DNA from: a virus
Lineage: Duplodnaviria > Caudoviricetes
Length of the DNA: 64,000 bases
IMG/VR virus record: IMGVR_UViG_3300029288_000066
Span: 96,001 to 160,000 of that record
Strand: one strand, 5' to 3'
In this document: piece by piece, positions 19,509-21,229 of the stretch
Layout: the number at the start of each line of letters is the position of its first letter
Position numbering within the stretch: the stretch's first letter is position 1
Made by a program: the position numbers and the translations under genes
Notes under the pieces: generated by a model
The model's database searches: none
What the model was told of the DNA's origin: nothing
What the model saw: only the letters and a program-made list of their open reading frames with translations

Positions 19509-19581
19509 TGGGAGTGGAGGGAATCGAACCCCCTAAAAATTGGATGTAACCCAACTGCCCCAGCCGTTAGACGCCACTCCC
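19509..19581 (-). tRNA. tRNA-Val(TAC)
   Basis: GTTGG-GTTACAT-CCAAT; GGTTCGATTCC T-arm. Confidence 0.82.
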
Positions 19582-19590
19582 GTAAAAAAA

Positions 19591-19943
19591 ATAAGATGAG
19601 CATAGCCAGAGTTCTGTTTTATTTTAGCATTTGTCTGGCAAAATGACTCGTCAAACTGCCGTTAGCCTCTACCAGGTCATTATAGAATTGAAGGTTCCCA
19701 TTCTAGACCCATTTGAGTTGCACACCGCCATTTGGCTATTTATTTAAAATAAACGTTGCACCAGTAATAACGATTGTAATTCGTGGCTTTCGGGTTACTG
19801 ATTTATTTGGCGCACTCTAACCCATTTTTCTATTTTGATGCCAATCCTAACAACTTTAACATTACAATCTTCTGATTCCTTCTTAATGATGTGCTCTGAG
19901 CTTCCTCATGTATTAATTACATGCGCTAAATCCTCTTTCTTAT
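19591..19943 (-). ncRNA. rnpB: RNase P RNA
   Basis: P4 strands GAGGAAGCTCAGAGC and ACAGAACTCTGGCTA; P3 CATGTA/TACATG; P2 TTTAGC/GCTAAA; about 350 nt. Confidence 0.85.
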
Positions 19944-20814
19944 TTTTATTAATTTTCCATCGTTTTTTTTGACAGTTATCCGAACAAAATCTTTTATGAT
20001 TATATTCTGTGTTAAATTTTTTCCCACAAAACCCACAAGTTCTATTTAAATAACTTTCTTTTACTATTGTTTCCCATTTGTGATTATAACATACAACTGG
20101 ACTTATTCCGATAAAATTTAAAAACTCAAAAACCTTTTTATTTGGTATTATAATTCTATTGGTACTCTCTTTTAAATAGGCATCAAACTCATAAAAATTC
20201 AATTTTTCAATTAAAACTTTATTATCTTCTTTGGAAAATGAATCAGTGCAAAAAACAGCCCCAACCTGATTATCTAAAGTCCCATCCCCTAAATACCAAT
20301 GCAGAACAACGGTTCTGTTAAGTTCTATATCTTTGGGAACTATTTTTTTTCCATTTGGATACCACTTTTCTCTTAATTTAGTAAAACACTTATTTGCTCT
20401 TGATGTTATAGTAAAATAATCATTCCCGTTGCTATATCCACTATGCCCTTTTCCGCTGTACTGTGACAACTCAAATCCAAGTTGTTCTGCTAAAAAATCA
20501 ATGTATTCTTTAAAAACACAAGAATGAGTAAAAGATGAATTTTGGTTATTGATTATTCTTTTGCAATGTCCATCAGAAAGTAAAGACCCATTTATAACAT
20601 CTAAGTCATTTTTTGTCAAAACTATTTCTTCTAAATTCTTTTTTGACTCATCTGAACACCTTAAAGAACAAAATCTGTTTGCCTTATGTTTCCTTTTTAG
20701 AAATTCAGCTCCACAAATTTCACATCTTCCTTTAATATAATATTCATAACCAGTACCGCTTTTACGTTTTTTTTTGTAAGAACCATCTTTTGTTATTTCG
20801 AAATCTCCTATCAT
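19906..20814 (-). CDS. LAGLIDADG homing endonuclease with zinc-finger termini
   Basis: INGSLLSDG and HWYLGDG motifs; CxxC...FCSxxC at both ends. Confidence 0.88.
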   Translation of the reverse strand: MIGDFEITKDGSYKKKRKSGTGYEYYIKGRCEICGAEFLKRKHKANRFCSLRCSDESKKNLEEIVLTKNDLDVINGSLLSDGHCKRIINNQNSSFTHSCVFKEYIDFLAEQLGFELSQYSGKGHSGYSNGNDYFTITSRANKCFTKLREKWYPNGKKIVPKDIELNRTVVLHWYLGDGTLDNQVGAVFCTDSFSKEDNKVLIEKLNFYEFDAYLKESTNRIIIPNKKVFEFLNFIGISPVVCYNHKWETIVKESYLNRTCGFCGKKFNTEYNHKRFCSDNCQKKRWKINKNKKEDLAHVINT

Positions 20815-20889: not shown

Positions 20890-21132
20890 TTATTTTCTCA
20901 TCAGAATCCCACCCCTCCAGGTCAAACCTTTTCCCCAGTAATACTTTCCATCCTTTGACATTGCCCAAACATTCATGGCCTCATCCATGTATACTGGAAG
21001 ATTTTCAAATTGCTCCATGGCAATTTTTGTTTTTGTTCTTCTTCTAAAAATTCTGTTGGCAAATCTTTTATCTTTTTTTTCAGACCCCCCACCAATGCCA
21101 AAAATGGGAGTTTTTCTTCTTGAGTTGCTCAT
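20890..21132 (-). CDS. Small basic hypothetical protein (MSNSRRKTPI...)
   Basis: Likely start at 21132; K/R-rich. Confidence 0.7.
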   Translation of the reverse strand: MSNSRRKTPIFGIGGGSEKKDKRFANRIFRRRTKTKIAMEQFENLPVYMDEAMNVWAMSKDGKYYWGKGLTWRGGILMRK

Positions 21133-21229
21133 GTTTTCTAAATTTAAAAATTTAAAAGACCGCAGAGCTCCTTCCATTAAAATAACTTTTCATGATAATT
21201 TCTTTTTTATAAATATTTTTAAAAAACTG

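Follow-up and report, generated by a model that had tools for sequence, protein, structure and literature searches.

A probable class A-derived RNase P RNA gene, overlapped by a LAGLIDADG endonuclease gene, among the tRNA genes of a large phage

Can a phage carry an RNase P RNA of its own, and what does it mean if the first helices of such an RNA are also the last codons of a homing endonuclease gene? The question is raised by a locus on the minus strand of the window, the 64,000-nucleotide stretch of DNA analysed here, which comprises bases 96001-160000 of a 228,886-bp IMG/VR virus contig (a phage record of 229 kb). The window contains 31-32 tRNA genes, which share the minus strand with the RNase P RNA without exception, and encodes an RtcB ligase alongside a CCA-adding nucleotidyltransferase. 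The locus as a whole is probably explained by a class A-derived phage RNase P RNA and a LAGLIDADG gene, both on the minus strand and with 42 nt in common. The genes concerned are listed below; the model R1 and the related phages L217 and L220 are described further on.

411-1592 of the window: CCA-adding nucleotidyltransferase
19509..19581 (-): tRNA-Val(UAC)-like gene; 41 bits with the Rfam tRNA model, no ARAGORN call
19587..19947 (-): phage RNase P RNA gene, 361 nt, bounded by the outermost P1 pair; from pairing, the R1 match and covariation with L220 and L217
19906..19947 (-): overlap, in which the last 13 endonuclease codons and the stop are also the P1 5' strand, J1/2, the P2 5' strand, J2/3 and P3; by direct reading
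19906..20814 (-): gene for a LAGLIDADG homing endonuclease of 302 aa that has a Cys4 zinc-ribbon-like module at either end; Pfam PF03161 (LAGLIDADG_2), E 6.8e-25, and PHROG 11023, E 1.8e-30
20890..21177 (-): ORF for a small basic protein of 80-95 aa, upstream of the endonuclease gene, with a conserved position in relatives

The tRNA-Val(UAC)-like gene starts at 19581, 5 nt past the last P1 pair of the RNase P RNA, in agreement with the earlier note on this DNA, which had placed the RNA among tRNA genes. This tRNA gene has an odd D arm and does not encode CCA, and the missing CCA fits the presence of the phage's own CCA-adding enzyme. The small basic ORF on the other side of the endonuclease gene occupies the same position in L217 and L220, with 60-70% identity, and has no match in Pfam or PHROG; it is absent beside other RNase P loci. 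The phage record, 82% complete, yielded no RnpA (PF00825), and a promoter scan gave nothing exceeding shuffled expectation and no distinct promoter for the RNase P RNA. In the 455-kb relative, an IS605 OrfB / TnpB-like (Cas12f-like) gene (L217:6527-7687) lies 1.6 kb downstream of the endonuclease-ribozyme pair.

The catalytic half of the RNA is complete, comprising P1-P7, P15-P18 and the unpaired bases of CR-I, J5/15, L15, J18/2 and CR-V. Its elements, in the order of the transcript except for CR-V, which is given beside its P4 partner, are:

19933..19947 (-): P1 5' strand, pairing with 19587-19600; two compensated pairs in relatives
19925..19930 (-): P2 5' strand, pairing with 19623-19628; pseudoknot with P4
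19907..19923 (-): P3 hairpin; stems and loops differ in the four relatives and all pair
19894..19907 (-): CR-I and P4 5' strand, with the bulged U at 19899; three P4 pairs compensated in L217
19604..19617 (-): CR-V (ACAGAA) and P4 3' strand; from direct reading, the signature scan and R1
19888..19893 (-): P5 5' strand, pairing with 19721-19726; two compensatory pairs in L220, also obtained by RNAalifold alone
19878..19882 (-): P6 5' strand, pairing with the P17 loop at 19690-19694; predicted pseudoknot
19667..19719 (-): J5/15 AA, P15, J15/16, P16, P17 and L15 GGUA (19670-19673); from R1, pairing and covariation
19628..19660 (-): P18 (19637-19660) and J18/2 (19628-19636); four compensatory pairs in P18

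All 98 of the 98 proposed pairs, distributed over 17 helical segments, are standard pairs. P1 consists of 10 + 3 pairs, while P2 and P3 have six each. P4, whose strands lie ~290 nt apart, forms 8/8 Watson-Crick pairs around the bulged U; by comparison with E. coli rnpB, four of these eight pairs are changed on both sides and the unpaired conserved bases are kept. The earlier claim that the P4 signature strands and the P1-P3 pairings are present with compensatory changes is thus borne out, since all the helices form and the four P4 pairs differ from E. coli on both sides. The start coordinate given at that time, 19591, falls 4 nt short of the end of P1 at 19587. All the catalytic-core positions that were checked are kept, namely the A-A of CR-I, the bulged U, the AA of J5/15, the GGU of L15, J18/2 and CR-V, and the J18/2 motif is common to the window RNA, E. 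coli and all family members. The P15-P16-P17 arm, the GGU in L15 and the position of the P6 pseudoknot are features of class A rather than class B. The loop of P18 in the window RNA is not a GNRA tetraloop.

Two peculiarities of this half are of separate note. In L217 (L217:5100-5115) the conserved G of the CR-V motif ACAGAA is an A, and three compensatory changes keep P4 fully paired. A motif spanning the end of P5 and the start of CR-IV is present in two copies ~38 nt apart (19717-19762, minus strand), both in the window phage and in its relatives, and a shorter version of this duplicated motif is found in L207; it may represent an old internal duplication. An alternative pairing of P5 and P15 through the first copy of the repeated motif, at ~19761, was considered and rejected, as P5 would then have only three pairs, L217 breaks it and R1 aligns to the second copy.

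Standard tools give little indication of this RNA. The Rfam RNase P models produced nothing at the gathering score and no match reaching E = 1, the sole sub-threshold signal being an 8-bit local archaeal match, and RF00010 gave no match up to E 10, including a run on the entire phage record. The earlier note had proposed a search with RNaseP_bact_a/b and had taken the lack of a match to speak against the RNA. Such a match is indeed missing, but rejection on that ground would be wrong, because the family-specific model, the close relatives and the covariation all identify an RNase P RNA. Folded as a single sequence, the RNA does not exceed shuffles in stability (z = -0.74). BLAST against the phages in GenBank gave no match, and the exact CR-V 19-mer has none in IMG/VR.

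The P4 signature, sought with a purpose-written scan, occurs once in the 229-kb genome, as compared with 0.01 occurrences per shuffled genome (300 shuffled genomes). The family-specific model, R1, was built without the window's RNA, on the 3' halves of 18 further RNase P RNAs from phages; five of the 18 score 158-188 bits with RF00010. R1 is a sequence-only model because the automatic consensus structure of the 3'-half alignment gave no pairs. In the 64-kb window it has a single match, at 19601-19723 (39.9 bits, E 2e-11), and since the patterns used to gather the training set came in part from the window RNA, much of this 40-bit score reflects motifs that were selected for. The training RNAs gathered by pattern were validated independently, either by Rfam or by a P4 partner lying outside the pattern, and R1 also matches two canonical class A RNAs as well as rnpB as annotated in E. 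coli (30 bits, E 2e-8).

Relatives were found through protein homologues of the endonuclease. Two related phages, L217 (contigs of 372 and 455 kb) and L220 (84-91 kb), carry the whole RNA, and a 1-kb fragment, L226, contains the endonuclease gene and only the 5' part of the RNA. The gene order in L217 and L220 is that of the window: small ORF, endonuclease, RNA and tRNA-Val. In a three-way alignment with these two, 98.8% of cells pair under an 87-pair model that includes the P2, P4 and P6 pseudoknots and was derived from one of the compared RNAs. Changes on both sides are found in 22/87 pairs versus 8.8 +/- 2.3 in shuffles (0/500) and 0-4 in slid controls, the counts being small because only three full relatives exist. 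Unguided, RNAalifold recovers P1, P5, P7, P15, P16, P17, P18 and both extra hairpins. Within the close clade P2, P6, P15 and P17 are invariant, and P16 contains three compensatory pairs. Across 20 RNAs of the wider family, the 6-nt complement that forms P2 is present and followed by GC in 20/20, in 13 different sequences, and the middle pair of P15 covaries (alignment A1). P6 pairs in all three relatives and never varies, the family-level test being non-discriminating for this helix, so that P6 stays a predicted pairing. Taken together, these comparisons support the view that the RNA at 19947-19587 is a true, structurally conserved homologue of bacterial class A RNase P RNA.

The wider family was collected from IMG/VR by a motif-pattern search followed by a filter for P4 complementarity, which gave ~25 RNase P-like RNAs. 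Nearly all of them lie within phage tRNA clusters, and Rfam misses them apart from five of normal size and one miniature. Around 12 members are miniature, with 159-212 nt from CR-I to CR-V, and have the CR-I variant, the stub helix and the CR-IV motif as in the window RNA; one miniature member is matched end-to-end by RF00010 (70.7 bits, E 1e-19). The family features present in the window RNA are the CR-I variant, the stub helix with its conserved joiner, CR-IV directly before P16, and J18/2 with CR-V. In the IMG/VR viral contigs L040, L046, L095, L106 and L116, the tRNA clusters contain class A RNase P RNAs of full size (158-188 bits with RF00010), which indicates that phages carry a range of these RNAs from normal-sized to miniature. 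A tmRNA gene (L080:5523-5903, 124 bits) was also seen, 1.2 kb from an RNase P-like RNA on a 50-kb viral contig.

Other searches added little to this set. The neighbouring 207-aa protein, used as query, found no relatives, and RtcB found two fragmentary ones with no RNA in their available parts. A subfamily pattern with the stub motif returned only L079 besides chance matches, and a clade-specific 23-mer searched in metagenomes returned only the two known relatives and no endonuclease-free allele of the window RNA.

The other half of the RNA is strongly altered. P8-P14 and CR-II/CR-III are not recognisable, and only P7, a stub helix and an insertion remain:

19760..19876 (-): specificity-domain remnant, in which P7 (19872-76 / 19760-64) encloses a 9-bp stub helix (19861-69 / 19772-80); one compensatory pair each in P7 and stub
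19781..19860 (-): apical insertion on the stub helix, 80 nt; in the window RNA and L220, absent from L217 and L226
19727..19754 (-): two small hairpins between the P7 and P5 3' strands; four and one compensatory pairs, respectively

As far as can be read from sequence, the half of the RNA that would recognize the tRNA elbow is reduced to a stub. The layout of the stub is the same in L079, L109 and the miniature forms, with a conserved joiner after it. The 80-nt insertion is missing in two of the four relatives, and the other family members have 7-10 unpaired nucleotides where the window RNA has its two P7/P5 hairpins; it is to such insertions that the window RNA owes its near full length of 361 nt. 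Insertions at the stub are seen elsewhere as well. The RNase P-like RNA L079:353-654 (-) has a ~133-nt stub insertion with a tRNA-like acceptor stem, T arm and CCA-like end, for which neither ARAGORN nor Rfam gives a tRNA call. The RNase P RNAs L055:1531-1825 and L213:7139-7328 are near-identical and differ only by a ~104-nt insertion at the stub tip, suggesting that the tip is an insertion hot spot.

The endonuclease is a single chain with two LAGLIDADG motifs and their acidic residues, and both motifs and 8/8 cysteines are invariant in 12 homologues. A PDB sequence search returned a sole match, which was spurious. The reading frame terminates at a TGA (19908-19906) that takes its first base from the end of P3 and the other two from the start of CR-I. 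The earlier note had described the ORF as reading through P1-P3 to this TGA with about 38 dual-coding nucleotides, and this holds, the count being 42 nt (39 if the stop is excluded). Four phages (window, L217, L220 and L226) have kept the overlap, with the stop at the same UGA. Changes in P1 within the ORF, one of them Asn-to-Asp and the other synonymous, are compensated ~350 nt downstream. P1 and P2 contain 20 invariant nucleotides, and the 30-nt stretch that holds them is the most conserved window of the endonuclease gene. The P3 stem differs in each phage and yet always pairs, and the residues it encodes differ too, while homologues at 48% identity or less end ~9 residues earlier. The invariance of P1 and P2, the pairing of P3 with differing residues, the compensated changes in P1 and the shorter distant homologues all point to the RNA dictating the sequence, with the peptide tail as a by-product; in the overlap it looks to be the RNA that constrains the sequence, with roughly the final nine amino acids as a passenger.

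The relation between the endonuclease and RNase P RNA extends beyond the window clade. All ten of ten homologues with at least 38% identity and readable DNA adjoin an RNase P RNA gene, as identified by R1, the P4 scan and direct reading. Three layouts are found: in the window clade the endonuclease gene is upstream of the RNA and overlaps it, in L223, L224 and L230 it is 65-90 nt downstream, and in L225, L231 and L232 the two genes converge at the RNA 3' end. None of the six distant endonuclease loci has an adjacent tRNA gene, and in five of the six there is none within 2.5-3 kb; in L232 a single tRNA-Ser is situated ~1.4 kb from the endonuclease gene. The flanking genes differ among the endonuclease-RNase P loci and make up at least five sets. 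Conversely, 0/21 RNase P loci found by RNA pattern carry this endonuclease, and a homologue of 33% identity, located in a tail module, has no RNase P RNA alongside. An endonuclease whose ten closer homologues all adjoin RNase P RNA genes, and which none of the 21 RNase P loci found by pattern carries, resembles a homing endonuclease with a fixed target. Judged from gene neighbourhoods, this lineage appears to home to the RNase P RNA genes of phages. The RNA gene was left intact at all ten endonuclease insertions, which argues that the RNA is under selection.

Several other readings of the locus have to be weighed against these. If the RNA were a chance resemblance, an AT-rich intergenic stretch with RNase P-like motifs, the lack of an Rfam match and the insignificant fold z-score would be expected, but the unique P4 signature, the R1 match, the relatives, the RNAalifold result, the covariation and the variation of P2 across the family speak so clearly against coincidence that its probability is negligible. 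It is also improbable, though less so, that the RNA is a relative of RNase P and not an enzyme, serving as a decoy or scaffold for host RnpA or pre-tRNAs (and for instance redirecting or throttling host tRNA processing) or persisting as a decaying relic. The lost specificity domain, the failure of the Rfam models, the change in CR-V of L217 and the fact that no phage RnpA was found are all in line with that possibility. However, every checked catalytic-core position is kept, and 22 compensatory pairs preserve the helices, a pattern that a relic would lack; the RNA gene is intact at all ten endonuclease insertions, and an E. coli RNA consisting of the C domain only is reported to be catalytic (PMC5839562). 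An RNA that catalyzes cleavage of pre-tRNAs, as predicted from its kept catalytic core, is the better reading.

For the overlap, functional dual coding would mean that the endonuclease needs the C-terminal peptide encoded by P1-P3. Seven tail residues are indeed identical in four homologues, but their codons lie in the 20 nucleotides of P1 and P2 that never change. Where P3 is translated, each phage has other residues and yet retains the stem, and the tail is missing in homologues that are not upstream of the RNA; a requirement for the peptide is therefore very unlikely, and a tail shaped by the RNA is preferred. More weight, although it is still the less favoured view, is given to the possibility that the shared neighbourhood reflects an inherited gene order or a two-gene cassette moving as a unit, with the RNase P gene not being the cleavage target. 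All the evidence for homing is neighbourhood, no empty site was found for the window RNA, and L224 and L230 share flanking genes. On the other hand, inheritance or joint movement fits poorly with three layouts on both strands and at least five sets of flanking genes, with the absence of the endonuclease from 21 other RNase P loci, and with the more distant homologue that sits elsewhere without an RNA. Homing next to the RNase P gene accounts better for this distribution.

Under the preferred reading, that of a catalytic RNA with an RNA-shaped overlap and a homing neighbour, the following course of events is proposed. The RNase P RNA would be co-transcribed with the surrounding tRNA operon, and its 3' end would be freed by an RNase P cut at the tRNA that starts 5 nt after P1. 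The RNA is likely to work with the host RnpA protein, which is proposed because none is found in the phage record, and would trim the 5' leaders of the phage's ~31 tRNAs, whose CCA ends would be added by the phage nucleotidyltransferase. A free-standing LAGLIDADG gene would have settled immediately upstream, its frame lacking a stop of its own and ending on the UGA of P3/CR-I. As the cut at the 5' end of the RNA would remove the last codons and the stop of the endonuclease, the two products would compete on each transcript, and 5' maturation of the ribozyme and a complete endonuclease message may be mutually exclusive for any one transcript. It is possible, but rather doubtful when all its parts are taken together, that the LAGLIDADG lineage homes into the flanks of phage RNase P genes and thereby spreads the ribozyme among large phages, that the overlap makes 5' maturation and endonuclease translation mutually exclusive, and that an elbow-blind ribozyme with host RnpA provides the phage with a tRNA processing of its own that tolerates its atypical tRNAs.

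The window RNA is closest to class A RNase P RNA, represented by E. coli M1 RNA (rnpB; RF00010), with which it shares helices P1-P7 and P15-P18 in the same order, the bulged U of P4, the CR-I/CR-V bases, the AA of J5/15, the GGU of L15, J18/2 and the position of P6. Unlike M1 RNA, it has no recognisable P8, P9, P10-P14 or CR-II/CR-III and no GNRA loop on P18, and it contains the P7/P5 hairpins and the 80-nt stub insertion, is a viral gene and has no RF00010 score. The miniature phage RNase P RNAs belong to the same family; the window RNA is longer, and it is the first member observed to overlap with a homing endonuclease gene and to be associated with a lineage of such enzymes.

A natural precedent for such a reduction is the RNase P RNA of Thermoproteaceae (Pyrobaculum), in which the specificity domain is nearly absent and which needed a dedicated model to be found (PMC3579882). 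There, too, the catalytic domain of a natural RNA is kept and the specificity domain mostly lost, but the Thermoproteaceae RNA is archaeal, works with archaeal proteins and is an essential cellular gene, and the loss is independent. An engineered E. coli ribozyme consisting of the catalytic domain only is reported to cleave substrates with reduced efficiency (PMC5839562). It is a precedent for activity without a specificity domain, although it is a laboratory construct, whereas the window RNA is natural and has added elements.

The endonuclease may be compared with SegB of phage T4, a free-standing homing endonuclease whose gene lies in the region of the tRNA genes and which is reported to promote the inheritance of its neighbourhood (PMC2330249). 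Both are free-standing endonuclease genes beside stable-RNA genes of a phage, but SegB is a GIY-YIG enzyme associated with tRNA, while the window enzyme is of the LAGLIDADG type with zinc-ribbon ends, and its lineage accompanies RNase P RNA genes also at loci that have no tRNA gene nearby.

The literature search found no paper on a phage-encoded RNase P RNA and no earlier link between a phage RNase P RNA and a homing endonuclease, and a 2024 review of the RNase P field mentions no viral RNase P RNA. As far as could be found, RNase P RNA has been described in print from cells and organelles and not from viruses. The constant adjacency of the endonuclease homologues to putative RNase P RNA genes, as apparent from the genomes compared, seems likewise to be new.

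A class A ribozyme that is natural and conserved and yet lacks the elbow-reading domain would offer a test of how large a part of RNase P is required in vivo, and it raises the question whether phages retune tRNA processing for their own sets of tRNAs. The conserved 42-nt overlap would be a clean natural case of an RNA structure dictating the end of a protein. Finally, a selfish gene family that has a ribozyme gene as its constant neighbour suggests both a route by which the ribozyme may have spread and a new homing specificity.
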